From a virus, in IMG/VR virus record IMGVR_UViG_3300045988_183796: a stretch of 64,000 bases of DNA; one strand, 5' to 3'. Numbering within the stretch: the stretch's first letter is position 1; the number at the start of each line of letters is the position of its first letter. Shown here in pieces: positions 12,044 to 39,870 of this stretch. Under the pieces are notes generated by a model that did no database searches, was not told the DNA's origin, and was given only the letters and a program-made list of their open reading frames with translations. Made by a program: the position numbers and the translations under genes.

Positions 12044-12411
12044 AGTCAACAACCCCGCCCAAACCGGTTCACCGGTTATAGACGGGGCTTGCGGGGCAAC
12101 CCGTAAGCCCGGTTGATTAGCCTTGGTGAACGGCAACTTCGGTTGCTGCGAACTCCGTTATGCATTTGATGAGCAATCATCTTCATAATATAGGCACCCC
12201 GATATGCTCCACAAGTGTCGGGCTCTGCGGGCAGTGTATGTATCAATGGCGCAAGCCGTTGATATGTATTACGTTAAAAATCTCTAAGGGTAGGAGATGT
12301 GCGGCTGCCATGCCGAAAGGCTGAAACAGTGCATAACATTGGCGAAGTGGACCACAGGGCGCAAGCCCTGACTTATAGTTTCATTACTATTTAACGAAAG
12401 GAGTATCTTGC
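12044..12411 (+). ncRNA. IscB-associated omega-RNA (HEARO-like) scaffold, copy 1
   Basis: About 365 nt of stop-rich non-coding sequence ending exactly at the iscB ATG. Contains GNRA-capped stems (cagggc-gcaa-gccctg; gcttgcgggg-caa-cccgtaagc; accggttcaccggt). Its 5' and 3' blocks are shared with a second copy at 30880-31198, and the two copies show compensatory base changes. Confidence 0.6.
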
Positions 12412-13605
12412 ATGAGCACTTGCGTTTGTGTTCTCAGCAACAGTGGTGAACGCTTAATGCCTACCTTCCGTCTTGGCAAGGTACGCCGACTCTTGAAAGA
12501 CGGAAAAGCAAAAATCGTTAAGCACCATCCATTTACTATCCAGTTACTGTATGACAGTAAAACAAACACGCAGCCCATCGAAATCTGCGAGGATGTGGGC
12601 TACAACTACATCGGCATCAGTGTAAAAAGTCAATCTCACGAGTATGTATCTGCGCAGTATGATACATTACAGGATGAGAAAGCCTGCCACGACAGTTGTC
12701 GTAAGTTGCGCCGAACCCGCAGAAATAGACTGCGCTACCGTAAACCGCGCTTCGATAACCGCAAGCGCGGCGAAGGTTGGCTTGCTCCTTCTTTGAAGCA
12801 TAAGAAAGAACTCAATGTCAACGTTGTCAAGATGTATTGTGCAGTAATGCCCATTACTCATGCAACGGTTGAGGTTGGTTCTTTTGATACGATGCTTGTA
12901 AAAGCAATTCAGGAGGGAAAAGCCATTCCTGAGGGAGCAGACTACCAGAAAGGTCCCCGCTACAACTTGGCAACTTTGCGTGAGGCAGTGTTCTACCGTG
13001 ATAATTACACCTGCCAAGTTTGTGGACGCAAAATCGCGGATGGTGCCATTTTACATATGCACCACATGTTCTACTGGAAAGGAAGACACGGCTACCAGCT
13101 TGATGAGTTGGTTACAGCGTGTGAAAAATGCCACACGCCAGCAAATCATCAAAAAGGCGGCAAGCTCTTCGGTTTTGGCGAAGATAAAGAATTTGCCAAT
13201 CTTTCAGGTGCAGCGTTTATGAACGCTGTTTGCTGGCAGATAGTAGATGCACTGCACGCCACATACGGTAAGGAATTTGTGACCATCACTTATGGTGCGA
13301 TGACAAAGGAAAAGCGAATCATTCTTGGCATAGAGAAAACCCACAACAACGATGCGTATGCAATGGGAGATTATCATCCGGTACATCGTTGCGTGTTTAG
13401 GCATTACCAAAAACGACGCAGAAACAATCGTGTGCTGGAAAAATTCTACGATGCCACTTATATCGACACCCGCACCGGTAACAAAGCAAAAGGTAAAGAA
13501 CTATTTAACGGCAGAATTAGCCGTAATCACAAAAAGAATTCTGAAGACCTGCACAAGTACCGCAGCAAAAAGGTATCGAAGGGCCGTCGCTCTATAAGAA
13601 GGTAG
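12412..13605 (+). CDS. iscB: IscB (IS200/605 OMEGA RNA-guided HNH/RuvC nuclease)
   Basis: N-terminal PLMP-type motif (SGERLMPTFRLGKVRRLLKDGKAKIVKHHPFTIQL). RuvC-I EDVGYNYIGISV. Arg-rich bridge helix RKLRRTRRNRLRYRKPRFDNR. RuvC-II ATVEVGSFD. HNH YTCQVCGRK...HMHH...ACEKCH. RuvC-III THNNDAYAM. No TnpA nearby. Confidence 0.8.
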   Translation: MSTCVCVLSNSGERLMPTFRLGKVRRLLKDGKAKIVKHHPFTIQLLYDSKTNTQPIEICEDVGYNYIGISVKSQSHEYVSAQYDTLQDEKACHDSCRKLRRTRRNRLRYRKPRFDNRKRGEGWLAPSLKHKKELNVNVVKMYCAVMPITHATVEVGSFDTMLVKAIQEGKAIPEGADYQKGPRYNLATLREAVFYRDNYTCQVCGRKIADGAILHMHHMFYWKGRHGYQLDELVTACEKCHTPANHQKGGKLFGFGEDKEFANLSGAAFMNAVCWQIVDALHATYGKEFVTITYGAMTKEKRIILGIEKTHNNDAYAMGDYHPVHRCVFRHYQKRRRNNRVLEKFYDATYIDTRTGNKAKGKELFNGRISRNHKKNSEDLHKYRSKKVSKGRRSIRR

Positions 13606-13889
13606 CGCTATGCAATTCAGCCATACGACACTGTGCGTCTCGAAGGTAAAACATACATTACAAGCGGGTGCCATAATAAAGGCACAAGACTTTTGATTCC
13701 TGCTAATGGGAAAAACAAGTCCGTAGCAATTTCCAAAGTTCAAGTTGTTTGCCATGCGGGAGCATGGATACAAATCATCTAAATATTGAAAGGAGGTAAG
13801 CAGGAAATGCTGTATCTTAGTCTTTTCTAAGAAACGCATTCCTCCCCACCTAAGCCTTACGGCTATAGATGGGGTGTCCTGCTCCATTA

Positions 13890-13990
13890 TCATGAAGCGT
13901 AGCTGCTTGTAAAGAAATGAAAGACGGATGACGGAAGCGTAGCCGCTGCCCGGTAACAGGCTGCCGGTTGCGTAGCTGCCATTCGTCTTT
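13890..13990. repeat. Three GCGTAGC(T/C)GC repeats with about 34-nt spacing
   Basis: gaagcgtagctgc, gaagcgtagccgc and ttgcgtagctgcc are read directly from the sequence. They lie downstream of iscB and upstream of gene 14014. Confidence 0.55.
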
Positions 13991-21032: not shown

Positions 21033-21359
21033 GTTCTTTCGTTCTCCTTCGTTTGGATAGTTTTTGCACAAATACTTCAATGTAGTATTTGTTGTACATC
21101 TCCTATTGTATCTGGCTCGCATATCCCGGCAAGCAAACAAGCATTACAAATTGGTAACCATTCGTGCAGCTACTGAAAAAATCGCGAAATTTCTTCGATG
21201 ACTTCCGGTTGTAGTGTATTTGATTGGACTTCCAAATTCTATTTTATCCGCACATATTGCAACTTACGGTTGTATTTGCTATACTATTAACAACCAATTA
21301 CAACCAGCAGAACATAAATAACAACCAACAGGTGTTGCAGCGGACGGAGGAGGCCAATC

Positions 21360-23875: not shown

Positions 23876-24373
23876 ATTTTTTTGCGCGAAAGAATATCGG
23901 ATAAGTGACGCTTCCTACTCGTATGACCGAGAGAAAACATGCAAAGACTCTACCATTCTGGTAGGGCTTTTTTGCTGCCCAAAAAGTTGGAAAAATGTCG
24001 CAAGCGAGCCGCTGAAACCTCAGAATTTTGTCGCAGCCTTTCCGAATATGAGATGTATCTCACAAAAGCGAAATGCGCTGCTTCGTATCTGTGGTGAGAC
24101 AATCGGAACAGGCGAATAGCAAAATCTCAGCTGCCGCAAATGCTGTCAAGTTCAAATCACAACTCCCAAAAGTCTCGTTTGGGAAAGCCTGCATTAAAAG
24201 TTTCGTTCTGGGAAATGCAGAGGGGAAAGGAAAATGTCGAAGCATATATGCACTGATTTTCTTCTTGCTATTTGTGCAATCCGCTCAAATTGGCGATAAA
24301 TATTCCCAAAATAAATAAGTCAAAGTGCTTTTGGTGTATAATGGCTCTGACAAACAGAAAAAAGGAGAACACT

Positions 24374-25456: not shown

Positions 25457-25613
25457 TTTGACGCCCTCCTGCGATTAAAATTATTAACTTTCCCGGGCAT
25501 CGTTTGCGACTTTGTAAGTAAAGGTTTCGTTCTGGGAAAACACGGTGGAAAAGTAAAATGTCGAAGCGCTTTTGATGTATAATAGCCTTATACAAAGAAA
25601 AAAGGAGAAAATC

Positions 25614-26636
25614 ATGAAAAAGGTTGTATCATTAGCACTTTCGGCTTTGCTTGTACTTTCCCTGGCCGCCTGTAGCAGCTCTAACACTACCAGTACTGCT
25701 GCCAGCAGTGCAGCTACATCTGATGCTGCATCCTCCGAGGAAAGCACCAGCGACTCTTCAACGAGTACTGCAAGTAGTGCTGCCGATAATGCAACGGCTG
25801 AACCCGACATCCAGTTCGATGAGAGCTTCCAGCCACAGACGATTGCCGACAACGATACCTGTACCATCATCTTGCAGAACGTGGGTTATGATGACAGCTA
25901 TGGCTACTACTGGACCGTTGATTTCCAAAATAAAACGGATGACAAAACTCTTTGCGCTATCACAAGCAGCTCGTCCTTGAATGGAATCCCGGCAGATACC
26001 AGTTGGTTCCCGGAAATTGGACCAGGAGTGAAAACCACCGAGGTCGTTTCGTGGGATAAAGCAGGACTGGAAATCTATGGAGTGAAACCGCAAGACATCG
26101 ATACCGTCAAACTTCACATCGATGTCTATGATGAAGCAGAATGGGATGTGTCGAATCGTGATGACCCTGTCGATGATGACTTTGTGATTTATCCGAAAGG
26201 TGAAGAGAAAGCGACAGAACCAAAACACGAGATTCAGCCCACGGATATTGTGCTGTTCGACAATAATGCCTGCAGCATGGTCGTTTGCGGATTTTATTCT
26301 GATAGTTTCATGGGCTACACGGCAAAAGCCTACTATCAGAATAAGACAGATGACCGTATCGACATTATTCTGGATAAAGGCTCCATCAATGGCTTTGAGT
26401 GTACCCCGGGAGGAACAACATTGCTGGAACCACATTCTAATGCCTACGTGGATATCCGTTGGCAGGAATATGCCGAAACCTACGCAGAAAATGGCAATGA
26501 CCCAACATCCATCACAGAAATTGTAATGCCAGTTTTTGTGAGAAAAGACACAGGGAGCAATACGGTATACATTGACGCCACTTATTCCATTGACTCACAA
26601 GCAAGAACAGCAACGCCGATAGTGAATCCCCAATGA
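25614..26636 (+). CDS. Lipoprotein, paralog 2 of a tandem pair
   Basis: MKKVVSLALSALLVLSLAACS lipobox. Duplicated leader (tttcgttctgggaaa...aaaatgtcgaagc...tgtataat) as in paralog 1. Confidence 0.7.
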   Translation: MKKVVSLALSALLVLSLAACSSSNTTSTAASSAATSDAASSEESTSDSSTSTASSAADNATAEPDIQFDESFQPQTIADNDTCTIILQNVGYDDSYGYYWTVDFQNKTDDKTLCAITSSSSLNGIPADTSWFPEIGPGVKTTEVVSWDKAGLEIYGVKPQDIDTVKLHIDVYDEAEWDVSNRDDPVDDDFVIYPKGEEKATEPKHEIQPTDIVLFDNNACSMVVCGFYSDSFMGYTAKAYYQNKTDDRIDIILDKGSINGFECTPGGTTLLEPHSNAYVDIRWQEYAETYAENGNDPTSITEIVMPVFVRKDTGSNTVYIDATYSIDSQARTATPIVNPQ

Positions 26637-26783: not shown

Positions 26784-28313
26784 TTATTCTTCAGTTTTCT
26801 TTTTCAGCCACTGCCTTCTAACGAACGGTGTTACATAGGTTTCATCACTCTTCAGCTCATAGCCATAGCTTTCAGCTATCATGGTAGCACGTTCACTCGC
26901 TTTCTGCCCGGCAGGCAGGCGACGAATAAAACCATTGATGTTCTTGGACGAAGCATCATACTTGGACTTGTCGAACACCCGCAGCGGCTCGTCGTCATCA
27001 TTGCCTTTCTTGCGATAATCGCGGGGCTTTCCGCCAATCATCAGACAACGAATCCTGAATGGAGCATCCGCGTGTGTCACAAACGAAGACCGGAACGACG
27101 CATCAGTGGGCAGGACATCCGGCAAATCACAGGCGAGAGAAGTGTACAGCCAGAGAATCAGATTCGTGACGCTGTCAACCAGCTCTGGAAATTGAGCTCG
27201 GTCAGTCAAAATATAAAACCACTCGGTGCTTGTGTTATAGTATCCGGCCAGGTCACCGAACTTGGTTACGATTTTATACAGACACACAATCTCGTTGTCG
27301 CGGCAAGTCTCTTTCAGCTTAATTTCCTGTATCAGCTGGCAGGCATCAAACTGAAACAATGCACCGTTGGCGGGAAGAGTTCTGCGGCGATGGTGCAGCG
27401 TATCTTTCAAAAACTCTGTCGTATATTTGGGTGAGATGGGCTTTGGCCACCAGGACCACATGTTCGGAGTATTCTCAATCAGCGGCTTGTCCGGCAGCAT
27501 GTCCACGGTATACTCGTTCACATAGGTAGCCATCGAAAGGACTGTGTTCGTATACAGATGTGAGAGCAAAGCGAGGTTGTTGATGCTGTCGAAGTCGGCA
27601 ACGTCCTCATAACCATAACGCTTGTAGTACGAAAAGACCATATCCAGACGTCTATCTTCAGAAATCTGAGAATCGCATTTGTCGTATGGCCGATTGTTGA
27701 AAAGAGCATCACTATAATAGACAGGAACATCGGCGAGGGGATAGGGGTCCCGAATAATGATTGGCTCGTTCTCAGTTGAGATACCGACAATGTTGTTCAC
27801 AATATCGAATTCCTGAGGCTTGAGGTATTCGCTCCCCTGCATCAGCATATCGATTACCGCGTACAAGACAGAATCATTACGTTCCACAATTCCGTCAATG
27901 GTCAAACCTAAATGAACGCATTCCTGCGCATAAGCAATAGCCTTAAAATACAGAGCATAGTCCTTATTCTTCTTGATGGGCTTTGTGAGCTCCTGCAAGA
28001 ACCGATGATATCCCTTGATGAATTTATCAGAGTTCGCCATGGCGAGCTCTATCTGAGAGTTAACGGCCTCAATAAGAGGTTTGCACTCCTCAGCTCCACG
28101 GGCCAGGTGAAAGAGGAAAGTAGATGCTTTCCCAAAATCCATGTCATGCAATGTCGTCGCAACCTGGCAAGCGCTGGACAGGGTTCTTCTCTGAAATACC
28201 CAGATAGACTCGCCTTTGCTCCGATACTTCTTATCCCATACCGGTACGTATTTATCGACTAGGGCATTACCGAAATCTTCCTGCACTGCCAAAACACCAT
28301 TTTCGTTCTGCAC
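26784..28313 (-). CDS. Large hypothetical protein (509 aa), downstream partner of the HD-domain gene
   Basis: Long ORF with coding-like composition and no motif I recognise. Lies 73 nt downstream of the HD gene on the same strand. Confidence 0.6.
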   Translation of the reverse strand: MQNENGVLAVQEDFGNALVDKYVPVWDKKYRSKGESIWVFQRRTLSSACQVATTLHDMDFGKASTFLFHLARGAEECKPLIEAVNSQIELAMANSDKFIKGYHRFLQELTKPIKKNKDYALYFKAIAYAQECVHLGLTIDGIVERNDSVLYAVIDMLMQGSEYLKPQEFDIVNNIVGISTENEPIIIRDPYPLADVPVYYSDALFNNRPYDKCDSQISEDRRLDMVFSYYKRYGYEDVADFDSINNLALLSHLYTNTVLSMATYVNEYTVDMLPDKPLIENTPNMWSWWPKPISPKYTTEFLKDTLHHRRRTLPANGALFQFDACQLIQEIKLKETCRDNEIVCLYKIVTKFGDLAGYYNTSTEWFYILTDRAQFPELVDSVTNLILWLYTSLACDLPDVLPTDASFRSSFVTHADAPFRIRCLMIGGKPRDYRKKGNDDDEPLRVFDKSKYDASSKNINGFIRRLPAGQKASERATMIAESYGYELKSDETYVTPFVRRQWLKKKTEE

Positions 28314-28386
28314 AGTATCCTCCTCATAGTTTCAGCTGCCCTACACAGCTCTGCGCAGTGGGCAGTAGTTTGTGGGCCATCTCGTT

Positions 28387-29721
28387 TCAAAAATACTTGG
28401 GGTCCACGGCCCGCATCCCGAACCGCACACGGTCCAGGGCATCTGCGTCTTTCAGAATCGTATACAGCAGCCACACCCGTTCTTTGTCCCGGATATTGGA
28501 TGCTTTGAGGTCTGCAAGAGCCTTGCGGTCATCCAAGCAATGATACTCGATGAGGAAAGCAGTTGCCGGATTGCAGTCGGAGTCTGCGTCATAATAAATG
28601 TCCCTGGACTTTGCTCCGTGACTGTCATCGACATCATCATTCGTCCGCCCAATATCATGATAAAGAATCGCATCACATAGCTGGTGGGATTCTTTTTTTG
28701 TTAAGGCAATGCCCTGAACCTGAACCAAAAGCAGCGCATCAAAGAGAACTCGCAGCGTATGCTCGGCGTCGTGCTCCTCGTCATCAATCCGGCCATAATC
28801 ATCGTACAGTGCGGAGATACGGCTCCGGTAGCACTGATAGAGCGAATAAAACGCTGGGATTTTGTCTGCCAGAGCGTCGATACCGTAAAGTGTATCAATC
28901 TTGACTTCATTTATAGCAGCTGGTGAAATGAGAACTTCTTTTTCTTCATCACGCGAAAAGTATTCGATGATATCACTTTTGTTGACGTGAGCAGTTATGA
29001 TTCTGCTGTTATCAACACTTGGAATACGACAGGCAAAGAAACAGGCTGCCTTGTAGCTTGTGGTCCAGGAGAAAGATTTCTCGTATGGAGTTGACTTACT
29101 CCCTTCCCCACGATAGATGGTCACAATATCCGGCAGGCTGGATAGCTTCTTTTCAGTGTCCTGCTTTTGCTTCTGAGACTTTCCAGAAAAGACTTTCTGA
29201 AGGTTATCCTCTTTGAGAGCCGAGAACCCAAAATCACTGGTACGATAGAAGTCCAGAAAAAGCGCGTATAGATTCTCACCCGGACTGGACAACTCAATGT
29301 ATTTAGAAAGAACCGATACACGCAGGCTGTCTTCCAGGGAAAAGAGGTAGCTGCGAATGAAGGGGGCGTTTCCCGATGAGATTTTCTCGGCCCTATCCAG
29401 AACTCTCTGCTGAAACTTTTCGTCCGATTCGCCGTTCACAGCCAAGCGTTTGTCTCCATAAATGTTCAGAGAAAGAACAATAGGAATTATCGGATTGTTA
29501 AGCTCACAATAATATAGCGATGCCAGCATATTGTGCGTAGCATAGATTCTGGCGACAGGAAGCCTCGGATACTTCTTAGCAAATTCGTTGGCCGTTATGC
29601 CGACACTGTAGCCTTCTTTGTAGTACCGTTCGATATCTGCGCTTGTTTTCACTGCTGTAAGGGGAAGCATCGTGTCGAGATTTGCTTGATTTATTTGTAT
29701 CAGGATATCTCCGATTGTCAT
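28387..29721 (-). CDS. HD-domain phosphohydrolase-like protein with an N-terminal domain of unknown function
   Basis: C-terminal H...HD...D motifs (EHTLRVLF, YHDIGR, LKDADALDRV). Start chosen at MTIGDI because the extended -10 TGGTATAAT lies inside the longer ORF. Confidence 0.65.
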   Translation of the reverse strand: MTIGDILIQINQANLDTMLPLTAVKTSADIERYYKEGYSVGITANEFAKKYPRLPVARIYATHNMLASLYYCELNNPIIPIVLSLNIYGDKRLAVNGESDEKFQQRVLDRAEKISSGNAPFIRSYLFSLEDSLRVSVLSKYIELSSPGENLYALFLDFYRTSDFGFSALKEDNLQKVFSGKSQKQKQDTEKKLSSLPDIVTIYRGEGSKSTPYEKSFSWTTSYKAACFFACRIPSVDNSRIITAHVNKSDIIEYFSRDEEKEVLISPAAINEVKIDTLYGIDALADKIPAFYSLYQCYRSRISALYDDYGRIDDEEHDAEHTLRVLFDALLLVQVQGIALTKKESHQLCDAILYHDIGRTNDDVDDSHGAKSRDIYYDADSDCNPATAFLIEYHCLDDRKALADLKASNIRDKERVWLLYTILKDADALDRVRFGMRAVDPKYF

Positions 29722-29892
29722 AATTCTTTTCTTTCTACATTTCTTTACAAATGCATTATACCATATTTTGGTGATTACAGGGCTAAATCGCAAAATCGTT
29801 CATGAATGCTTTACTTTTGCAATGTGTTGGCGTTAACGACCTGCGCGTCCAGATACGCAACACTTTCTAAGGGGTCGCGTGAGGCTCGAACG

Positions 29893-30300
29893 TCAGATTC
29901 TCATTAGAAGTTCTGTCGGAGTAAATGCGACTACTTTGCTTCTTGTGAAATCACGAACGTTTCTCGTAATAATATAATCGGCATGAATTTGTTCTGCAGT
30001 AGCACTTTGAACTGCATCTTCAAAATCCTTCCAGTTCATTTCAACAGCTTTTGAAAGAATAGAAGAACTGAAATCAGCAAATTCAAAAATCAAACACAGT
30101 TTGTGATATACTTCTTCGATTTTATCGGAAGTGAGTTCTTTTCGGAGAATATACATAATATTTGCGAAGGATAGCGTGGAAATATAGCCTTTTGCTTGCT
30201 CTGTTTCGCATAGCTTCCATATCATCGCGGATTCCTTCACAAAGTTTTCTCGGTTTTGCAATACATCCAATACGATGTTAGCGTCAATCAGTAAGGTCAT
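29893..30300 (-). CDS. PIN-domain toxin (VapC-like)
   Basis: MTLLIDANIVLD..., with acidic residues in PIN positions. Overlaps the antitoxin gene by 17 nt. Confidence 0.8.
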   Translation of the reverse strand: MTLLIDANIVLDVLQNRENFVKESAMIWKLCETEQAKGYISTLSFANIMYILRKELTSDKIEEVYHKLCLIFEFADFSSSILSKAVEMNWKDFEDAVQSATAEQIHADYIITRNVRDFTRSKVVAFTPTELLMRI

Positions 30301-30535
30301 ACTTTTCTCTCAGCCTTTCCTCTTTCACTTCGTCAAGGTTGTAATTTCCTTTAAGGATGCCGGTGAGGGAATCTGTGAGATAGGAAACGGCAGCATCTTT
30401 GGGAATGAAACGACCAACTTCACGGCCGTTTTTTGTTACGATTATTTCCTGACCAGACATAACGAGATTCAAGTATCTTCCAAAATTATTCTGCATTTCA
30501 GTTGCGGTTGCAGTAGCAGTAATCATAACTGACAC
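30284..30535 (-). CDS. Phd/YefM-family antitoxin
   Basis: About 83 aa with the typical Phd fold sequence (QNNFGRYLNLVMSGQEIIVTKNGREV). Confidence 0.8.
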   Translation of the reverse strand: MSVMITATATATEMQNNFGRYLNLVMSGQEIIVTKNGREVGRFIPKDAAVSYLTDSLTGILKGNYNLDEVKEERLREKYDLTD

Positions 30536-30539
30536 CTCC

Positions 30540-30585
30540 TTTTAGCTAATTATATTATACACAAAGTTAGCTAATTTTGCAACTT
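30540..30585 (-). promoter_or_regulatory. Toxin-antitoxin promoter with twin TTAGCTAA palindromic operators flanking the -10
   Basis: Reverse complement reads TTGCAA-N17-TATAAT. The palindromes TTAGCTAA lie at about 30542-30549 and 30567-30574. Confidence 0.6.
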
Positions 30586-30615
30586 GAAAATATTTGGAAC
30601 CAAGCAAATTTGCTC

Positions 30616-30643
30616 TTGCGCTGCTGTGCGAACTTCGTACAAT
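30616..30643 (+). promoter_or_regulatory. Regulon promoter (TTGCGC-tgctGTGCGAACttcg-TACAAT) driving a short terminated transcript
   Basis: Member of the conserved-spacer promoter family. Followed by an intrinsic terminator at 30747-30785. Confidence 0.55.
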
Positions 30644-30746
30644 AAGAATTGTACAAGAGAAACGGCAAGAGACATTTGTAGTGATTGTAGTTGGTCGCCA
30701 CGAATCGATACCGTGTCTGCTTGCGCATAATTACCTCTTTTCGAAG

Positions 30747-30785
30747 CCCACAGGTCATTCTCTCACCTGTGGGTTTTGTTTATTG
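30747..30785 (+). terminator. Intrinsic terminator (perfect 9-bp stem plus T-run)
   Basis: cccacaggtcattctctcacctgtggg ttttgtttatt. Confidence 0.7.
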
Positions 30786-30810
30786 CGGAATCGTGCGAAT
30801 TGCAGATAAT
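30783..30810 (+). promoter_or_regulatory. Regulon promoter upstream of omega-RNA-like copy 2
   Basis: TTGCGG-aatcGTGCGAATtgca-GATAAT. Confidence 0.55.
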
Positions 30811-30879
30811 TAAAGACAAAGCGATTGTGAGATGGGGCGATACCGATGCAGTAGGGATGAGAATCTTAGCAGCTAAAAG

Positions 30880-31198
30880 AGTCAACAACCCCGCCTAAAC
30901 CGGTTCGCCGGTTATAGACGGGGCTTGCGGGGCAACCTGTAAGCCCAGTTGATTAGCCTAAGCCCATTGCTCCGGCAGTGGGGAAAACTACGTTGTGTAC
31001 TAATAATATAGGCACCTTATCCATGCTCCACAAGTGGTGAGCTCTGCAGGCGTTTCGTTAAACATCTCCGAGGGGAGGAGAAGTGCGAGCGTCATGTCGA
31101 AAGGCTAAAACAGTGCATAACATTGGCGAAGTGGACCACAGGACGCAAGTCCTGACTTATAGTTTTATTACTATTTTACGAATGGAGAAACAAAAATT
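30880..31198 (+). ncRNA. Omega-RNA/HEARO-like scaffold copy 2 (no iscB), abutting the flotillin start codon
   Basis: Shares the 5' ~75-nt and 3' ~95-nt blocks with copy 1. The middle is divergent. Shows compensatory base changes (caggac-gcaa-gtcctg versus cagggc-gcaa-gccctg). Confidence 0.5.
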
Positions 31199-32842
31199 AT
31201 GGTATATGTGATTGGAATTGTAGCAGCCCTGATTATTCTCTTTGGATTTCTCTGCTACAAGAAAGCTCCGCCCACGGAGGCTATCGTTGTAACTGGCTTT
31301 GGCCTGTCTAAGCCTAAAGTGGTTTGCGGAAAGGGTACATTTGTTCTGCCCGTTCTTCAACGGGCTGACCGACTGAATATGCGCCTTTTGAAAATCGATG
31401 TCAAGACTCCTGAAACAGGTGTTAAGACGAAGAACGGCGTAAGTCTCTGGATTGACTCTGTTGTCACGATTCAAGTCTACAGCGAAAACTCTACCGTTCT
31501 GGATGAAGAAGTGAAGGCATCCGGTCTGAAAGACGCCAAGGCGTACATCATGTCCCGCCAGCAGGCAGCCATCTCGAACTTTCTCGGCATGAACGAGCAG
31601 GGCATCAATGAGAAAGTTAATGACGTTCTGCAGGGCAATTTGCGTGAGATTGTCTCTGACATGACCGTTGACCAAATTCTGACGAACCGCAAGCAGATGG
31701 CTGTGAGCGTTATCGAGAATGCTCGCCCCGACCTTGCTAAGATGGGACTTGAGGTCGTGACTTTTAATGTCCAGGACATCAGGGATGCAGTGGATGTTCA
31801 AGGCCACAATCACGGCGTTATCGAAGCTATCGGCATCGAACAGGAAGAGCTCGTAAAGAAACAGGCTGAAATTGCCCGTGCTCAGGCTGCCCGTGATGTA
31901 GCCTGCGCGAAGGCCGATGCTGAGATGGCTGCAAATGCCAAAGAAGTTGAAGCGCAGACTGCGATTGCAAAACGCAACAATGAATTGCAGCTCGCCAAGG
32001 CAAAGCTGAAAGCTGAAGCTGATAAAGCTGCGGCTGACGCAGATGCTGCCGGTCAGATTCAGATGAATCTCCGCGCCAAAGAAATCAAAGAAGCGGAAGC
32101 GGATGCTGAAATTGCCAAGCAGAAGAAAATGGTAGACCTTGCCGCACAGGAAGCCGAGGTCCAACAACGCAAACTGGATGCGGAAGTCCGCAAACAGGCA
32201 GATGCTGACCTGTACCGCCGCCAGAAAGAGGCAGAAGCCAAGAAATATGAGGCGGAACGTGCAGCTGAGGCACAGAAGTTCTCCAAGCAGCAGGAAGCAG
32301 AAGGCATCGAGCTTGTCGGTAAGGCAGAAGCTGAAGCGATTCGTCAGAAAGGCTTGGCTGAAGCGGAAGCTATGAAACAGAAAGCAGAGGCATATAAGCA
32401 GTATAACGATGCGGCTGTGGCTGAAATGCTCATCAAGGTTCTTCCGGACATTGCCAAGAGCGTGGCTCAGCCTTTGTCCAGCATTGATAAGGTTTCTATC
32501 ATTGGCGGTGATGCCTCCGGCGTATCCGGCGTTTCCGGGAACGTTCCTATCCTGATGGCTCAAACCATGCAGACGGTGAAAGAAGCGACCGGCATTGACA
32601 TGGGCGAAATTGTCCGTGCCAACAGCATCCAGGCAAAGACAGACCGCAACATCAACATTATGACTCAATGTGAACAGCCTGAGAATAACAAAGAGAAAGG
32701 AGGTGCCAAGGCAATGGAACGCGTAGAAGGCGGCTATCTGATTCATGAGAAGAGTCTCAACGGTGAGGAAGTCACTCATTTTCGACCGGATGTGACCGAA
32801 GAAGAGAAGGCTATCATGAAAGACAAAAAAGCCAAAGATTAA
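31199..32842 (+). CDS. Flotillin-like SPFH/Band-7 protein
   Basis: N-terminal TM helix, then an SPFH domain (VVTGFGLSKPKVVCGKGTFVLPVLQRADRLNMR...) and a long EA/K-rich coiled-coil. The antisense 581-aa ORF was rejected. Confidence 0.8.
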   Translation: MVYVIGIVAALIILFGFLCYKKAPPTEAIVVTGFGLSKPKVVCGKGTFVLPVLQRADRLNMRLLKIDVKTPETGVKTKNGVSLWIDSVVTIQVYSENSTVLDEEVKASGLKDAKAYIMSRQQAAISNFLGMNEQGINEKVNDVLQGNLREIVSDMTVDQILTNRKQMAVSVIENARPDLAKMGLEVVTFNVQDIRDAVDVQGHNHGVIEAIGIEQEELVKKQAEIARAQAARDVACAKADAEMAANAKEVEAQTAIAKRNNELQLAKAKLKAEADKAAADADAAGQIQMNLRAKEIKEAEADAEIAKQKKMVDLAAQEAEVQQRKLDAEVRKQADADLYRRQKEAEAKKYEAERAAEAQKFSKQQEAEGIELVGKAEAEAIRQKGLAEAEAMKQKAEAYKQYNDAAVAEMLIKVLPDIAKSVAQPLSSIDKVSIIGGDASGVSGVSGNVPILMAQTMQTVKEATGIDMGEIVRANSIQAKTDRNINIMTQCEQPENNKEKGGAKAMERVEGGYLIHEKSLNGEEVTHFRPDVTEEEKAIMKDKKAKD

Positions 32843-32964
32843 AGACAACGAATAAAAAGAGGGTGACTCGAAAGAGCCATCCTTTTTTCTGTTGTGACGC
32901 AAACGAAAAGCTCATGGTAGCCATCCAATTAGGGTGACTGTCTTTTTTGCATGTTAAGGCTTTG

Positions 32965-32992
32965 TTGCTGAATTGTGCGAATTGAAGATAAT
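32965..32992 (+). promoter_or_regulatory. Regulon promoter
   Basis: TTGCTG-aattGTGCGAATtgaa-GATAAT. Upstream of gene 33047. Confidence 0.55.
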
Positions 32993-33046
32993 TAAAAACA
33001 AAAGATGCTTTGTATCAAATCGATTGAAACCGAAGAGGTGAAGTTA

Positions 33047-33850
33047 ATGCTCGGCGTGAGTTTGATTATCATAGCAGCGGCTATAGTCTACATGGTCGAA
33101 ACCTATATCAGCACCTATTACACTATCGAATACATGCACGGAACATCGCTGTTCCTTATCCTCCTTGCGAAATATGGCACGCCGGTCCTGTTCCTGCTGC
33201 TCTGCGCATACATTGCATATCGCAATTTTCTCAAAAAGCAGAAAGCTGCGGCTTCTGCTGCATCTGAACGGCCTGCAAGCAAAGAAGAGCTGTATACCAA
33301 CAAAATTCAAACGGCAGTAAAGACAAAAAGCGTCTTCTCAGAGCAGGCTGACCAAATGCTGTATCAGGTACGGCGCTTCGGGCAAAAAATGGCCGTTGCC
33401 TACAGCATGACCCAGGATAGCAAGACATCCGGGGAACAAGCCAAGTGCCTAACGTTATTGGAATCCGCAGAACGTATCTTCTATGACCGACTGGATGACG
33501 CGATTCGCTCGGCTTCAATGTTTGATGAAACGGAATACAAGGCTTTCTGTCAAGGCTCTATCTCGTTTGGAAACAAAGAAGAAGCGCAGAAAAAGAAAGA
33601 AATCTACAATGGTATCGTAAGTACCGTGGATAAGGTAGTTCATGACAATGAGCGCTTAATCCTCCGATTAGATTCTTTAGCATACGCTCTGAACCAACGT
33701 TCTGCCCAGAATCCATGGGATGCAGAGGTTGTCCTCGCAATGTCTAAGCTCGACGCTGTCATCAACAAGACGACGCAGGACATCGAGCAGGATGAAGTAA
33801 TCAGCCGCGAGGCTATGAAGCAATATGATATTTTGAAAGGAGAGTCTTAA
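33047..33850 (+). CDS. Membrane protein (two N-terminal TM helices plus a helical domain; TelA/XpaC-like guess)
   Basis: RBS GAAGAGGTGAAG. Two TM helices, then a coiled region. Confidence 0.5.
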   Translation: MLGVSLIIIAAAIVYMVETYISTYYTIEYMHGTSLFLILLAKYGTPVLFLLLCAYIAYRNFLKKQKAAASAASERPASKEELYTNKIQTAVKTKSVFSEQADQMLYQVRRFGQKMAVAYSMTQDSKTSGEQAKCLTLLESAERIFYDRLDDAIRSASMFDETEYKAFCQGSISFGNKEEAQKKKEIYNGIVSTVDKVVHDNERLILRLDSLAYALNQRSAQNPWDAEVVLAMSKLDAVINKTTQDIEQDEVISREAMKQYDILKGES

Positions 33851-33851
33851 C

Positions 33852-35546
33852 GTGACGAAGAAAAATATTTTCCCTGTAGTTGCAACCATCGCCGTGGTGG
33901 GTGTTGTTCTCGGCGTGTTTTCGACGACTGTGCTGCGCGACTCGAATGTCAGCATCAGCACGATGACTTCCGAGCAGGCGTATGCGGATTTAAGCGGAAA
34001 GATGAAACGTATCGGGGTGCAGGAAGTATCCGTCAATCCGCAACAGCTTGATGTATCGGAGTTTCTGGACGCAAAAGATGAGTTGCCGGATATCGACTCC
34101 TCCTACCCGTTTGTGGTGGAGGGAAACGGTGATGTCAACATTGAAATTTTCTCTTCCGGCGAGAAAGCAGCAGAATCCGGCTCCGATTCTTTCCTGACAA
34201 GCATGGCAAAGAAGTTCAACGCCCAGCACAACAAGACTTCCGGAGACAAGACTATGAGTGTCTCCCTGCGCTCCATTCCGTCCGGTACGGCGGCTGAGTA
34301 CATCTCGACGGGAAAGTATCAGCCCGAGTGCTATACCCCTTCAAATACGCTCTTTGGCGAGCTGGTGAAGAACGAGGGCGTAGAATTGACCGTTGAGGCT
34401 GACCGTCTGGTCGGCAATGTGGCGGGTATTCTCGTATCAAAGAAGACAGGGGATATGCTTCGCTCTGAATACGGTGAAGCGTCTGTTTCTTCCGTTCTGA
34501 ACGCAACCATCGATGGCAAACTCATGATGGGGTATTCCAACCCATATACCAGCGCAACTGGTCTTAACTTCCTGCTTGCTGCATTGGCAAGCAGCGGCAG
34601 CGATACGATTGTCGATACGGCTGCTGTTGAGAATTTCCAGAAATTTCAAGCGAACGTCCCTCTCGTATCCTTCACGACCCAGCAGATGGTCCAGTCGGCA
34701 GACAAGGGCATCGTGGACGGCGTTGTCATGGAGTATCAGTCTTATCAGAATGACCCGACCTTACAGCGCAACTACGAGTTCATCCCGTTCGGTGTGCGGC
34801 ATGATAACCCCCTGTATTCTATTGGAAGCATCTCGGCCGAAAAGAAGGAAGTTATTGCTGCGTTCGTTTCCCTCTGCGCCCAGAATCAGGCAGAAGCGAC
34901 GAAGGACGGGTTCAATGGTCTTGACGACTATGCTTATACAGGCAAGGCATACGACGGCAACACCATCGCACAGGCTCAGAGTGTCTGGAAAGAAGAGAAG
35001 GATTCCGGTATTCCTATTGTGGCAGAGTTCGTTGTCGATACTTCCGGCTCGATGCGCGGCGAACCCCTGAATGCCCTGAAAACCGCGATGATAAACACCA
35101 TCCAGTATATCAATGACGACAACTATATCGGCATCATTGGCTTTGATTCAGATGTCAGGGAATACCTGCCCATTGACCAGTTCTCTCTGACCCAGAAAAC
35201 TCTGTATAAGGGTGCCGTGAACTCCCTCGATGCGAACGGCAGCACCGCAATGTACAACGGTCTTTGCGTTGCTATGGACCGCATCTACCAGAAATCTCAG
35301 GAACTGGGTGGGAATTGCACGCCCATCATCTTTGTGCTCACGGACGGTGACAACAATACCGGATATGGCTTCTCCGATACGAAGAACATCATTGCCGGTA
35401 TGGATATCCCCATTTACACCATCAGCTACAACTACGCAGCGGATAGTCTTTCGGAGCTCGCTTCCATCAACGAAGCGGCAGCTATCGTTGGTAACAGCGA
35501 GGATATCACCTACAAGCTCCGCAACCTGTTTAACGCAGAGATGTAA
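33852..35546 (+). CDS. von Willebrand factor A domain protein with an N-terminal TM anchor
   Basis: C-terminal vWA/MIDAS motif VVDTSGSMRGEP ... TDGDNNTG. N-terminal TM helix. Starts 2 nt after the upstream stop. Confidence 0.7.
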   Translation: MTKKNIFPVVATIAVVGVVLGVFSTTVLRDSNVSISTMTSEQAYADLSGKMKRIGVQEVSVNPQQLDVSEFLDAKDELPDIDSSYPFVVEGNGDVNIEIFSSGEKAAESGSDSFLTSMAKKFNAQHNKTSGDKTMSVSLRSIPSGTAAEYISTGKYQPECYTPSNTLFGELVKNEGVELTVEADRLVGNVAGILVSKKTGDMLRSEYGEASVSSVLNATIDGKLMMGYSNPYTSATGLNFLLAALASSGSDTIVDTAAVENFQKFQANVPLVSFTTQQMVQSADKGIVDGVVMEYQSYQNDPTLQRNYEFIPFGVRHDNPLYSIGSISAEKKEVIAAFVSLCAQNQAEATKDGFNGLDDYAYTGKAYDGNTIAQAQSVWKEEKDSGIPIVAEFVVDTSGSMRGEPLNALKTAMINTIQYINDDNYIGIIGFDSDVREYLPIDQFSLTQKTLYKGAVNSLDANGSTAMYNGLCVAMDRIYQKSQELGGNCTPIIFVLTDGDNNTGYGFSDTKNIIAGMDIPIYTISYNYAADSLSELASINEAAAIVGNSEDITYKLRNLFNAEM

Positions 35547-35665
35547 CTCAAAAGCGCGGTTTTGTCCGCGCAGCTGCTCCAAAAGACAGCCTCCACGCGG
35601 CGAGCAGCGGGCAACGGGAGACAGTCCCGGCAAATTGTCTTTGAGACGGAAGGAAGAAGTGCCCT

Positions 35666-36055
35666 ATGCGAGTACAACAGGTTCCGAACTCACCCTATTT
35701 CATCCATTACGACGATGAGGGCTTTTGCTGTATATCCAAAAGCAGAGAAAGCCAAGAACCTATCCCGGAATCTGAGATGCAAGCGTTCCTTGATGCAGTA
35801 GCCAACGGGTTACTCTACATCGAGAAAGAGCGAAAGAGCAGATACCAGCGCATCGAAGAAGCCGAAAAAGCAGCTTTTGCCAAGGGTGAAGCGGAAGGTC
35901 GAGAAGATAAGCTGCTCGCCACAGTCAAGGAGCTGAAGGAAGAACAAGCGTCAAGAGCAGAGTATGAGCGCAAGCTGCAATATGAAGTATATGCTCATCA
36001 TACTTCGCACACCACGAAAACCGAGTGGGTTCGCCTTGGTCGTGGAGGATGGTAA
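35666..36055 (+). CDS. Hypothetical protein
   Basis: RBS GGAAGGAAGAAG upstream. Coiled-coil C-terminus. Confidence 0.45.
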   Translation: MRVQQVPNSPYFIHYDDEGFCCISKSRESQEPIPESEMQAFLDAVANGLLYIEKERKSRYQRIEEAEKAAFAKGEAEGREDKLLATVKELKEEQASRAEYERKLQYEVYAHHTSHTTKTEWVRLGRGGW

Positions 36056-36060
36056 TTGAC

Positions 36061-36321
36061 ATGATGGGAAGCATTCTGATTCCGAATACCAGATTTTATC
36101 TGACCAGCATCGACGGCAAGAAATGGTCAGTGACAGAATATTATAGAACAGCACCGTTTAATCCCAACAAGGAGACCTACGACTTGTACAAGGCGTTTGC
36201 GGAAGCATTCCGAAAAAACGAAATAGAAGAACAGGAGTTTCCGGAAGAACTCAAAAAGGCCGTGAACAAGGCTTACGGAAACGGCTTATATGCCGGGCGG
36301 CATAGTGTTGATTTTGGCTGA
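36061..36321 (+). CDS. Small hypothetical protein
   Basis: RBS GGAGGATGG before the ATG. Confidence 0.45.
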   Translation: MMGSILIPNTRFYLTSIDGKKWSVTEYYRTAPFNPNKETYDLYKAFAEAFRKNEIEEQEFPEELKKAVNKAYGNGLYAGRHSVDFG

Positions 36322-36367
36322 GCCGAACAAGAAAAGAAGAACGGCACAGGAAAGCGGCAGAACGAAT

Positions 36368-36613
36368 ATGAGCATAGCAAAAATCGAAACGGCATCCGGC
36401 GTAACGCTGGTTCTCAACGGCAAAACAGTTTTCGCCTCAGATGATACCTCATACCGGATGCAGGGGTCTAAAATCATCGACGAAAACGGTCGGATTTGTG
36501 GGAACGCCGAGACTATCCGAGATGCCCTGTGCATAGTCTTGGCAAAGCACGGCGGGCTAAAAGGCAAAAATATAAAACATACAAAACCGAAAAAGGTGGT
36601 GAAAACATGGTAG
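36368..36613 (+). CDS. Small protein, family B paralog 1
   Basis: Shares the pattern ...NG...Y..G..L.G.G.VISY.C.S.DEA...V..LYGG with 36607-36789, 36809-37018 and 56159-56368. Confidence 0.5.
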   Translation: MSIAKIETASGVTLVLNGKTVFASDDTSYRMQGSKIIDENGRICGNAETIRDALCIVLAKHGGLKGKNIKHTKPKKVVKTW

Positions 36614-36789
36614 TATACACAAAATCCAGTGTGACGGTGAATTGCTACGGCAATATTATGACGGCATCGGACGGCAAGACCTACAACCTCTGCGGCAGGA
36701 TGTTGACCTGCAGCGGCAAGGTCATTAGCTACAACTGTCAGTCGAAAGACGAAGCACTGGGTACGGTCGTGGGACTGTACGGCGGTTGA
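36607..36789 (+). CDS. Small protein, family B paralog 2
   Basis: ATG overlaps the upstream stop. RBS AAAAGGTGGTG. Ends in ...VGLYGG. Confidence 0.5.
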   Translation: MVVYTKSSVTVNCYGNIMTASDGKTYNLCGRMLTCSGKVISYNCQSKDEALGTVVGLYGG

Positions 36790-36808
36790 AGGTTCTAGGA
36801 GGTACAAT

Positions 36809-37018
36809 ATGCAAACGGTCACGACAAACAACGGTGTAGAACTGCATGTTAAGGGCAGCATCATTTACACAACCGATGCCAAGGCGTTTTGGCGCAGCGG
36901 GAATATGCTGGTCGGAAACGGTACGGTCATCAGCTACCAGTGCCGGTCGATGGATGAGGCGGTCGATATGGTCGCCGCCTTGTACAATGGCAGAAAAATA
37001 GAAGCAGCGCAAGCATAA
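36809..37018 (+). CDS. Small protein, family B paralog 3
   Basis: RBS AGGAGGTACAAT. Contains ...VISYQCRSMDEAVDMVAALYNG. Confidence 0.5.
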   Translation: MQTVTTNNGVELHVKGSIIYTTDAKAFWRSGNMLVGNGTVISYQCRSMDEAVDMVAALYNGRKIEAAQA

Positions 37019-37037
37019 CCATCCTGCAAAAATATAT

Positions 37038-37075
37038 GCCGTTCATCTTTTTGGGTGGACGGCTTTTTGTTTTGT
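37038..37075 (+). terminator. Intrinsic terminator
   Basis: gccgttcatctttttgggtggacggc followed by a T-run. Confidence 0.5.
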
Positions 37076-37106
37076 GAATACAGCGATTCAGTGGCGAAGC
37101 GAGCCG

Positions 37107-37165
37107 ATTTTACCAGCAGTTTGATATTCTGCGGCATGATTTCCAGCAGTTTGATACTCTGTGGG
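37107..37165. repeat. Two tandem copies of a 27-bp element TTT(T/C)ACCAGCAGTTTGATA(T/C)TCTG(C/T)GG
   Basis: A third copy lies at 43312-43339 (ATTTTACCAGCACTTTGATATTTTGTGG). All three are immediately upstream of promoters. Confidence 0.6.
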
Positions 37166-37168
37166 CAG

Positions 37169-37196
37169 TTGCACAGCCGTGCAAATTGCATACAAT
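37169..37196 (+). promoter_or_regulatory. Regulon promoter (variant GTGCAAAT)
   Basis: TTGCAC-agccGTGCAAATtgca-TACAAT. Followed by a 340-nt leader before gene 37538. Confidence 0.5.
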
Positions 37197-37537
37197 GGGA
37201 ATTGGAGAACAAAAAAGCGATGCAAGGATGTATTTGCAATAAATATGGCGGCTGTTTTTGGTATTCACGAAACAACACGAAATTAAACGAAACGCGAAGA
37301 GGATACAAGAAAAGACGAATGAAATCCGGCTGAGGTGGATAATACTTGTGCCGAGTAGTTTAAAGTCCGGACAATGGGACAGCTAAAGTGGTAAAATGAA
37401 ACTAGGAATACCTAAAATCAGATTTAACCGAAAAAACAAAAACCATGAATGAATAATTGGTTGCTAAAAAGTAACCGCTCGCTTTTATACCCAAACCAAC
37501 AAATGACCCAAATCTGTTTAGGAAGGATAGGTACAAA

Positions 37538-39571: not shown

Positions 39572-39759
39572 AATACATTGCAGATGAGCTGCCGAACTCC
39601 CTCGAAGCAGAGATTTCTGGCGGCAACCAGCTTATCATGAACTACGAGCAGGCACAGAAATTGTTCGGCATCAAGTTTCGGCGCTGGCTGGGCATCTTTA
39701 ACCTCTAATATGCATGGCAGGTTCTTTTCGGAGCCTGCCTTCTTATTTCGCAAAAATAG

Positions 39760-39787
39760 TTGCCCATTTGTGCGAATTGCAGACAAT
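39760..39787 (+). promoter_or_regulatory. Regulon promoter
   Basis: TTGCCC-atttGTGCGAATtgca-GACAAT. Confidence 0.55.
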
Positions 39788-39870
39788 CAGAAATAAAGCG
39801 TAAAGCAAAGGAGCTGAGTACCATCTCAAAATTTGCAAGCAAAAAGTTGATTGAGCGAAATTGCAATATC

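Follow-up and report, generated by a model that had tools for sequence, protein, structure and literature searches.

The second omega-RNA copy in front of the flotillin operon (copy 2) is a transposon remnant of an ordinary kind rather than a new regulatory system. In our preferred reading, to which we assign a probability of roughly 0.78, it is what remains of an IscB-type IS200/IS605 insertion into a pre-existing flotillin leader, with iscB subsequently lost. The copy lies in a 64,000-nt stretch of viral DNA (IMG/VR record IMGVR_UViG_3300045988_183796; hereafter, the window), which also contains a full IscB element with its own omega RNA, copy 1 (Table 1).

An earlier note on this DNA had recognised a second omega-RNA scaffold copy here, and an Rfam covariance-model search bears this out. 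Copy 2 matches HEARO (RF02033) above the gathering threshold and over the full length of the model (positions 1-211, E = 3e-17), and the related omega RNAs of L077 and L065 score 91.3 and 91.6 bits. Copy 1 reaches just 59.2 bits (12045-12357) because of two insertions. In good agreement with the note, both the repeat finder and a pairwise alignment show 5′ and 3′ blocks common to the two copies (12035-12123 versus 30871-30959, 91% identity; 12269-12403 versus 31053-31187, 87% identity), with a diverged, indel-containing centre between them. The two pairing-preserving differences that it had quoted are also real: the copy 1 stem CAGGGC/GCCCTG becomes CAGGAC/GTCCTG in copy 2, a GC to AU change at alignment columns 316/323, and GGGG/CCCG becomes GGGG/CCTG, a G-C to G-U change that still pairs. 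RNAalifold applied to 11 family members yielded 95 pairs, 11 of them with changes on both sides, including stem 154-158/175-179 and the hairpin pair 316/323; G-U intermediates of the terminal hairpin are found in L018, L038 and L109. This 3′ hairpin, which is followed by an AU-rich tail, lies directly 3′ of the base-paired region of the HEARO model and overlaps only the unpaired model tail. Downstream structural elements absent from RF02033 have been described (Meers et al., bioRxiv 10.1101/2023.03.14.532601).

Table 1. Features of the two omega-RNA copies and of the flotillin leader in the window.
Feature	Position	Strand	Remarks
Core omega-RNA scaffold of copy 2	30881..31141	+	Rfam HEARO (RF02033), 91.2 bits versus gathering 83
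Solo omega-RNA insert	30881..31181	+	301 nt, GTCAAC...TTTTACGA; from the L077/empty-allele comparison
3′ terminal hairpin	31139..31154	+	CAGGAC-GCAA-GUCCUG; double change keeps the pair; terminator-like in scan
Would-be guide	30865..30880	+	16 nt 5′ of the scaffold, CTTAGCAGCTAAAAGA; native flotillin-leader sequence
ATGGAG	31182..31187	+	TAM-like ATGGA plus native flotillin Shine-Dalgarno; in empty alleles B and C
Flotillin gene	31199..32842	+	Band_7 and Flot (Pfam); first operon gene 3′ of the insert
Promoter/operator-like 41-nt repeat	30783..30823	+	Flotillin leader; older than the insertion; in empty alleles
Conserved upstream unit	30616..30785	+	Promoter-like motif, ~100-nt structured stretch, 14-bp hairpin plus U tract; independent of the omega copy
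Full IscB element (copy 1)	12045..13891	+	Omega RNA 12045-~12403; iscB 12412-13782; in-frame TAG 13603-13605; far-end hairpin 13845-13875; followed by ATGAA 13892-13896

There is no iscB directly 3′ of copy 2 in the same orientation; the next ORF encodes the flotillin. The ORF that follows the copy 1 omega RNA matches RRXRR and HNH (Pfam). Also missing from copy 2 is the far-end hairpin (CCCCACCTAAGCC...GATGGGG) present in all full copies, and what it has is the omega-side end alone (GTCAACAACCCCGCC...GGGG) rather than subterminal hairpins at both ends. Of an IscB IS200/IS605-type element, the solo insert keeps the omega-RNA-side end but neither iscB nor the far transposon end, and for lack of the latter copy 2 has lost the ability to excise or transpose as an IS.

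Full and decaying versions of the element are found in relatives. In more than 20 insertions with differing flanks GTCAAC forms the left element boundary, with divergence beginning immediately 5′ of it. Full IscB copies sit 5′ of ATGAA, the reverse complement of TTCAT, the TAM of GstIscB (Meers et al., bioRxiv 10.1101/2023.03.14.532601); no tnpA gene is present within the IscB element. The allele series shows that the family inserts 5′ of ATGAA or ATGGA, often between the Shine-Dalgarno sequence and the start codon of a gene. In L065, an omega RNA 92% identical to copy 2 is followed by an intact 456-aa IscB (91% identical to the IscB of the window) and a standard far end, and intact IscBs of 456-477 aa are common among related elements. 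Codon 398 of the iscB of the window is an in-frame TAG; in relatives it reads CAG. Recoding of TAG to Gln was considered as a rescue of this stop and rejected as the simplest reading, since the window contains no tRNA, its long ORFs lack in-frame TAG and the relatives have CAG. Several relatives have lost parts of the element: iscB and the far end are gone between ATGAA repeats in L020, iscB is truncated or internally deleted in L100, L033, L060 and L054, and the middle is lost with both transposon ends kept in L064. In L048, an IscB element interrupts the flotillin gene itself.

We compared 85 related flotillin leaders from gut metagenomes (10 long contigs, 66 metagenome leaders and 9 IMG/VR leaders). 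The omega insert is missing from about two thirds of them (57/85), namely from 9 of the 10 long contigs with an identical flotillin protein, 41 of the 66 metagenome leaders and 7 of the 9 IMG/VR leaders; this exact flotillin protein is present in 1245 collection blocks. In all 57 empty leaders the promoter-like motif, the leader, the Shine-Dalgarno GGAG and the ATG are contiguous. No HEARO was found in the empty alleles L084 and L107, which are more distant, nor in the chromosomal flotillin homologues of Gemmiger and Subdoligranulum. Given the predominance of empty leaders, the absence of HEARO from these alleles and homologues and the near-invariance of the solo copies, the insert is the derived state and the flotillin leader came first. 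Removal of exactly 301 nt (GTCAAC...TTTTACGA) from L077 recreates empty allele B, with the insert located just 5′ of ATGGAG; that is, the insertion adjoins a TAM-like motif without target-site duplication. The insert is polymorphic, present in about one third of the sampled elements (~33%) on polyphyletic backbones, and its linkage to flanking SNPs decays within ~300-600 bp; it has been shuffled among backbones by recombination. Counting against our preferred reading, this frequency, found across many backbones, is high for an element that is neutral, and some advantage or drive may lie behind it.

The empty alleles also bear on the proposed role of the RNA in flotillin expression. The ribosome-binding site had been thought to be supplied by the 3′ end of the RNA; however, the flotillin leader has its own GGAG and its own 17 nt ahead of the ATG, and both occur in alleles without the element. 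That the insert is a co-opted cis-regulatory leader, a structured RNA that controls how the flotillin operon mRNA is stabilised, terminated or translated, is likewise unsupported, and we regard it as very improbable. It does lie within the 5′ UTR, directly before the Shine-Dalgarno sequence, its 3′ hairpin and AU-rich tail scored as terminator-like, and the solo copies are nearly invariant (≤3 substitutions). However, a cis-regulatory class is recognised by a conserved association with a gene, and here the association is a minority insertion polymorphism: the 57 near-identical operons use the same promoter and Shine-Dalgarno sequence without the insert, and the Gemmiger and Subdoligranulum homologues show no such association. 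Moreover, since every full element carries this hairpin ahead of iscB, it is not a strong terminator; near-invariance is expected of a recent insertion, and the broken flotillin gene of L048 argues for weak selection on the operon. We think that the insert has no required function for the flotillin operon.

Judging from the flanks, the insertion would have split ...CTGAAT from ATGGAG, at the family's usual position directly 5′ of ATGGA and with no target duplication, which gives the predicted ancestor ...CTGAAT/GTCAAC...iscB...CCATAATT/ATGGAGAAAC (slashes mark the element ends). iscB and the far end would then have been lost together in a deletion that ran from the iscB Shine-Dalgarno sequence (AAGGAG) to its near-identical counterpart in front of flotillin (ATGGAG), which abutted the far transposon end. 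What remained would be an omega-RNA gene of 301 nt joined to flotillin's own ribosome-binding site and ATG. The allele series suggests that the 5′ flank later lost 6 nt, YTGAAT, giving rise to the common allele, which is that of the window. The insert would most likely be transcribed passively in the operon leader from the motif at 30783-30823. Since no contig with the full element at exactly this site was found (0 metagenome matches for the far end joined to the flotillin Shine-Dalgarno sequence), we infer the order of insertion and deletion rather than observe it. One point counts against the Shine-Dalgarno-to-Shine-Dalgarno deletion: the junction requires that the A/T mismatch in A[A/T]GGAG was resolved to T. 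Mis-excision by TnpA was considered as the deletion route and rejected, as it predicts the junction TATTTT/ATGGAG, whereas the observed one is ACGA/ATGGAG. Among the three options of the earlier note, a solo omega RNA retained after iscB was replaced comes closest to this reading, but with the order reversed, since the flotillin operon, its motif, leader and Shine-Dalgarno sequence are older than the insert.

The 301-nt unit might instead have moved as such, as a self-contained, PATE-like miniature transposon served by TnpA in trans. L077 looks like a clean 301-nt insertion by a TAM-like motif with no target duplication, and PATE-like derivatives do exist in the IscB family (L064; also Meers et al., bioRxiv 10.1101/2023.03.14.532601). 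However, CCCCACC...GGGG, the far-end subterminal hairpin of every full copy and of L064, is missing from the unit, and all solo copies (28/28) were found at one single site. A second ATGGA-adjacent junction is seen at window position 20706 and in L043, which fits an IS origin of the insert. L043 retains the flotillin right flank and is therefore a rearrangement, not a new insertion. A clean appearance would also follow automatically from a deletion that used a Shine-Dalgarno sequence abutting the element end. Independent movement of the unit is thus highly unlikely in our estimation, and we favour insertion of a full element followed by deletion.

Because the 5′ end of a HEARO/IscB omega RNA is the transposon end, its guide is flanking DNA. 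The would-be guide of copy 2, CTTAGCAGCTAAAAGA, has a single match within the window, and the copy 2 5′ flank matches the empty alleles at 15-16 of 16 positions; in empty allele C, the same 16 nt are followed by TTGAAT. For the common allele, the matching site in empty alleles (CTTAGCAGCTAAAA[G/A]A) has YTGAAT next to it, either TTGAAT or CTGAAT, and not ATGAA or ATGGA; only the rare L077 form keeps a guide next to ATGGAG. By its sequence, the guide of the common allele no longer adjoins a good TAM.

A further possibility is that the insert is a homing allele: a solo omega RNA made in quantity from the operon promoter would be loaded by IscB encoded elsewhere in the element or cell and direct cutting of empty leaders in co-resident elements, with recombinational repair copying the insert in. 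We consider this unlikely, and slightly more doubtful still its extension to a ‘guide-only’ selfish allele, i.e. an RNA-only homing drive that outlives the loss of nuclease and transposon end by borrowing IscB from copies in the same ~250-kb element or cell. Several observations are compatible with homing. The scaffold is intact and outscores copy 1, it lies ~60 nt 3′ of the conserved promoter-like motif, its 5′ flank matches the empty alleles, the IscBs that go with the two omega types share 91% identity, with intact ones frequent in related elements, and the insert combines its ~33% frequency and polyphyletic backbones with short linkage tracts. Furthermore, according to Meers et al. (bioRxiv 10.1101/2023.03.14.532601), the omega RNAs of protein-less elements are necessarily used in trans. 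Against this, the site in the empty alleles is followed by YTGAAT, the TAM of IscB reportedly tolerates mutation poorly (Meers et al., bioRxiv 10.1101/2023.03.14.532601), and the general mosaic recombination throughout these elements predicts rapid linkage decay equally well. The premature TAG in the window's own iscB, together with the common guide lacking ATGAA or ATGGA in empty alleles, also weakens the specific proposal of a trans-acting guide for the IscB 19 kb away.

The upstream unit and the promoter motif are parts of the flotillin leader and not of the omega copy. The copy had been credited with its own promoter at 30783; the motif itself is real, a 41-nt repeat with 4 copies in the window, but it fails a sigma-70 consensus scan and belongs to the flotillin leader. 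The ~140-nt unit upstream, suggested as a possible small RNA, is indeed structured (fold z = −3.9 for 30648-30785, with the 14-bp hairpin and U tract at its end) and is conserved in empty alleles. A permissive Rfam search of 30530-30900 returned no Rfam family, only a chance-level match to P37 (E 0.1), and across 40 variants the changes are mostly G-C to G-U with little covariation; neither an sRNA nor a coding role was established for the unit. The 281-aa ORF of the operon that had been called TelA-like has no Pfam match even at E 0.1, and megablast of 28000-40000 against phage and plasmid collections gave no match.

The main demonstrated consequence of the insert is that it offers homologous sequence through which omega-RNA copies can rearrange with one another: in L100 and L043, one flank has been swapped at an omega RNA. 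Omega-RNA copies dispersed over a large gut mobile element act as seeds for inversions and flank swaps. With filled, empty and intermediate alleles all available, the locus offers a well-documented natural case of IscB element decay, in which microhomology between Shine-Dalgarno sequences or between ATGAA repeats can strip the nuclease and leave an intact guide-RNA gene under a host promoter. If IscB does load the orphan RNA in trans, guide-only relics would be active players in plasmid competition.

Standalone omega RNAs were reportedly noticed by Altae-Tran et al. in 2021. Protein-less omega-RNA relics are already described, and copy 2 adds another. The earlier note could not match the copy to a described system; the full Rfam HEARO match and the description of protein-less, omega-RNA-bearing IS200/IS605 derivatives (Meers et al., bioRxiv 10.1101/2023.03.14.532601) supply one. 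With the HEARO/IscB omega RNAs (OMEGA; IS200/IS605-family ‘ISC’), copy 2 shares the full covariance match, a 5′ end at the transposon end and an extra 3′ hairpin past the Rfam model, as in Meers et al.; ATGAA is the motif flanking the family. It differs in preceding a flotillin gene instead of iscB and in missing the far end. Like PATEs and standalone omega RNAs, it is an omega-RNA gene without a nuclease, usable only with a nuclease in trans. However, PATEs keep both palindromic ends, are mobilisable and occur without a protein gene in multiple genomic copies, whereas copy 2 keeps one end, by the proposed Shine-Dalgarno-to-Shine-Dalgarno deletion, at a single site inside an operon leader. It resembles solo LTRs and IS fragments in being a derived, polymorphic 5′ UTR insertion, partly retained and a substrate for homologous rearrangement, but what has been retained is a complete, structurally intact guide-RNA gene, not a promoter or terminal repeat. 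Finally, as with TldR and other nuclease-dead TnpB repressors, a transposon-derived guide-RNA part is located at a host-gene promoter or leader; unlike in those systems, copy 2 has no neighbouring effector gene, its link to the operon is not conserved, and the RNA is part of the transcript instead of being aimed at the promoter.

The omega-RNA insert in the 5' leader of the flotillin operon (copy 2) is polymorphic and derived: the leader was there first. An identical flotillin protein is encoded in 1245 blocks of the collection of assemblies, and in nine of the ten longest contigs window positions 30604-30878 join 31183-31230 directly, with the insert absent; among these ten, the HEARO element is confined to L004, a contig identical to the window. 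When metagenomes were scanned with a 22-nt word from the leader, 66 loci came back, 25 of them occupied by the insert and 41 empty; an IMG/VR scan found two of nine leaders occupied, and overall the omega element is present in 28 of 85 leaders. HEARO was likewise absent from the more distant empty alleles L084 and L107 and from chromosomal homologues. Since all empty haplotypes (A, ...CTAAAAAACTGAATGTGGAGAAAT; B, ...AACTGAATATGGAGAAAC; C, ...GATTGAATATGGAGAAAC) keep the promoter-like motif, GGAG and the ATG, the promoter and the ribosome-binding site (RBS) are those of the flotillin leader, contrary to the earlier note, which had the RNA supplying the RBS and the copy carrying its own promoter. 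The occupied copies are at most three substitutions apart. In a flotillin-gene comparison occupied alleles were intermingled with empty ones, and association of the insert with flanking SNPs was complete (r2 = 1) over the first 150 nt but had dropped to an r2 of about 0.1 at 300-600 nt, indicating that the insert has recombined onto many backbones.

By score and structure, the copy 2 RNA is a member of the HEARO/omega RNA family. It matches the full Rfam model RF02033 (IscB omega RNA) over 30881-31141 (+) with 91.2 bits (E 3e-17; gathering score 83); it is not followed by iscB, one of the criteria for a HEARO/omega RNA. The match in copy 1, at 12045-12357, scores just 59.2 bits owing to two insertions; the ORF that follows from 12412 has RRXRR and HNH domains and is IscB. 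The repeat finder and pairwise alignment bear out the shared outer blocks and diverged centre described earlier: the copies are 91% identical over the 5' 89 nt and 87% over the 3' 135 nt, with indels between; GTCAAC marks the exact start of the similarity, which stops about 10 nt short of each ATG. Both of the pairing-preserving differences previously pointed out are real, and RNAalifold on 11 family members predicted 11 pairs with changes on both sides, including a terminal hairpin pair for which three related loci (L018, L038, L109) have G-U intermediates.

Searching for the 3' block common to both copies gave 53 IMG/VR loci, nearly all with a copy-1-type omega RNA (93-99% identical) followed by an IscB of 456-477 aa. 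The copy-2 type is rarer and occurs fused to flotillin; its sole occurrence (92% identity) before an intact 456-aa IscB and a standard far end is at locus L065, whose IscB is 91% identical to that of the window and which we take to be the parent lineage of copy 2. Across more than 20 insertion sites, flanks diverge directly 5' of GTCAAC, and the far side terminates in ...GATGGGGTGTCCTGCTCCATAATT followed by ATGAA, which frequently is where the next gene starts. Reverse-complemented, ATGAA reads TTCAT, reported as the TAM of GstIscB in a study that also locates HEARO at the right end as defined by TnpA and describes RF02033 as being without 3' structural elements (bioRxiv 10.1101/2023.03.14.532601). 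IscB elements recurrently lie between a host-gene Shine-Dalgarno (SD) sequence and its ATGAA start, in the same orientation (L016/L017, L032/L036/L065, L044/L058, L064), parting the gene from its RBS. The far-end hairpin of copy 1 (CCCCACCTAAGCCTTACGGCTATAGATGGGG) resembles the first omega-RNA hairpin of copy 2 (CCCCGCCTAAACCGGTTCGCCGGTTATAGACGGGG), and one DNA hairpin may double as transposase end and RNA stem. Copy 1 is embedded in short-repeat arrays (ACCGTAGG four times upstream; GCGTAGC(T/C)GC three times downstream and once upstream at ~11986), and L100 has similar GCGTAGCTGC repeats in its right flank; the repeats could be iterons or sites where a protein binds.

The rare allele L077 reads CTAAAAAACTGAAT/GTCAAC...TTTTACGA/ATGGAGAAAC (slashes mark junctions) and, minus 301 nt, equals empty allele B exactly; thus the insert sits directly 5' of ATGGA, which differs from ATGAA by a single base. 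L043 has a second ATGGA-type junction, where window 21158-20706 (-) is fused to GTCAAC and the next bases in the window are ATGGAC. What comes after the omega RNA in full elements is ACGAAAGGAG-N9-ATG, the ATG being that of iscB. In the leader, the far transposon end would have adjoined ATGGAG, and a deletion between AAGGAG and ATGGAG would have removed iscB and the far end, leaving the observed ACGAATGGAG. Such a deletion would explain the clean look of the junction and why the flotillin ATG appears, as the earlier note had it, where the iscB ATG sits. Locus L076 reads CTAAAAAA/GTCAAC and the common allele CTAAAAGA/GTCAAC, with 30938 C to T; in a series L077, L076, L109, common allele, loss of the 6-nt YTGAAT and two substitutions would suffice. 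A metagenome scan for the far end joined to the flotillin SD returned no match to the predicted full-length ancestor, so we infer the order of events.

Decay and recombination are also seen in relatives. In L020 the stretch between two ATGAA repeats, with iscB and the far end, is gone, and iscB is truncated or internally deleted in L100, L033, L060 and L054. In L100 the left flank of the flotillin leader is combined with an omega RNA of copy-1 type, the gutted iscB and a foreign right flank, and L043 has a foreign left flank fused to copy 2 and flotillin, demonstrating that omega copies serve as recombination substrates. The L043 arrangement is consistent with inversion between oppositely oriented omega copies; its left flank is RHS-repeat gene sequence (window 19995-21140, -) with the junction beside ATGGAC, and the rearrangement looks like an inversion of ~10 kb. 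L064 has a copy-2-type 5' half in an internally deleted derivative keeping both element ends. This PATE-like derivative (L064:1881-2300) continues with a copy-1-type insertion, the last iscB codons and an intact, ATGAA-flanked far end, and is inserted between SD and start codon, with a promoter-like motif lying upstream.

No computation made indicates a function for the insert, and passive co-transcription with the flotillin operon is most likely. Some 60 nt upstream of the insert lies a 41-nt motif that resembles a promoter plus operator but does not pass a strict sigma-70 consensus scan. The flotillin SD region is still AU-rich and open, and the 3' hairpin of copy 2 is weakly terminator-like, the same hairpin preceding iscB in all full copies. 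A cis-regulatory role is unlikely: operons that are near-identical otherwise lack the element in two thirds of cases, and an IscB element (copy-1 type, L048:1793-2700, ...AAACGCAACA/GTCAAC) breaks the flotillin coding sequence itself in L048, an allele whose leader is empty. Copy 2 might act as a guide in trans for an IscB supplied elsewhere, for which the intact scaffold and the commonness of related IscBs speak, but several points count against this, and we consider a guide-only homing allele improbable. The window iscB has an in-frame TAG (13603-13605) for CAG in relatives, the empty-leader site matching the common-allele guide runs into YTGAAT rather than ATGAA/ATGGA, the proper guide-plus-TAM arrangement is found only in the rare L077 form, and a search of the window yielded no other target. 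No suppressor tRNA or sign of recoding was found in the window; apart from the TAG (CAG, Gln, in relatives) the ORF is open to 13782, encodes 456 aa and is 96% identical to L032, and the TAG is probably a fresh nonsense mutation.

The unit upstream of the promoter-like motif of the leader, previously thought a possible small RNA, has a better fold than its shuffled versions (z = -3.9) and closes with a 14-bp hairpin and U tract. It matches no Rfam family, and its variation is too low for a covariation test. It is conserved alike in occupied and empty alleles. It has no part in the history of the omega RNA, and could represent a small RNA of the flotillin locus or an attenuated leader. The conserved promoter/operator-like motif of the 41-nt repeat, TTGC-N7-TGTGCGAATTGCAGAYAAT, heads several modules; between L003 and L001 identity stops right after it, where an IscB element replaces a Mor-like gene, and the motif may mark module boundaries.

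Since the window holds T4 coupling protein and VirB4-like ATPase genes, it is part of a conjugative element; related contigs, from metagenomes of the human gut, measure 220-280 kb, and the nearest cultured flotillin homologues (84-86% identity) are from Gemmiger formicilis and Subdoligranulum. The TelA-like label once given to the 281-aa ORF finds no support, with zero Pfam matches even at E 0.1. An HDV-like ribozyme match begins 27 nt past the stop codon of the vWA gene, and 24 nt separate it from a following 129-aa ORF without a Pfam match. Similarity of relatives to the window in this region begins at 30604, and the module just 5' of the leader is polymorphic: PIN toxin and Phd/YefM-like antitoxin in the window and L004, a TnpB (OrfB_IS605) gene in five relatives (L003, L006-L008, L010:8242-9351) and neither type in others.

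Coordinates of features in the window
Feature	Position	Strand	Remark
Repeat array upstream of copy 1	11926-12044		
IscB element (copy 1)	12045-13891	+	
Far-end hairpin of copy 1	13845-13875		
Repeat array downstream of copy 1	13897-13985		
Adjacent ORFs (tandem paralogues)	24272-25456; 25572-26636		N-termini and upstream regions 71-82% identical
Shared upstream and N-terminal stretches of the paralogues	24195-24492; 25519-25732		
Polymorphic module	29893-30530	-	
Upstream unit	30616-30785		
41-nt repeat, four copies	30783; 32965; 39760; 40971		similar at 30616
Omega-RNA insert (copy 2)	30881-31181	+	
First omega-RNA hairpin of copy 2	30889-30923		
Flotillin (Band_7/Flot)	31199-32842		downstream of copy 2
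281-aa ORF			downstream of copy 2
Protein with C-terminal vWA domain			downstream of copy 2
HDV-F-prausnitzii ribozyme match	35573-35642	+	RF02682, 60.4 bits (gathering score 44)

Altae-Tran et al. are said to have reported standalone omega RNAs in 2021. Copy 2 keeps only one transposon end, which makes it no intact ISC element and no PATE either. The earlier note could match it to no described system; besides its place in the HEARO family, protein-less omega-RNA-bearing derivatives that would need a nuclease in trans have already been discussed (bioRxiv 10.1101/2023.03.14.532601). Copy 2 is thus no new class of RNA leader but a well-resolved case of IS decay within the leader of an operon.
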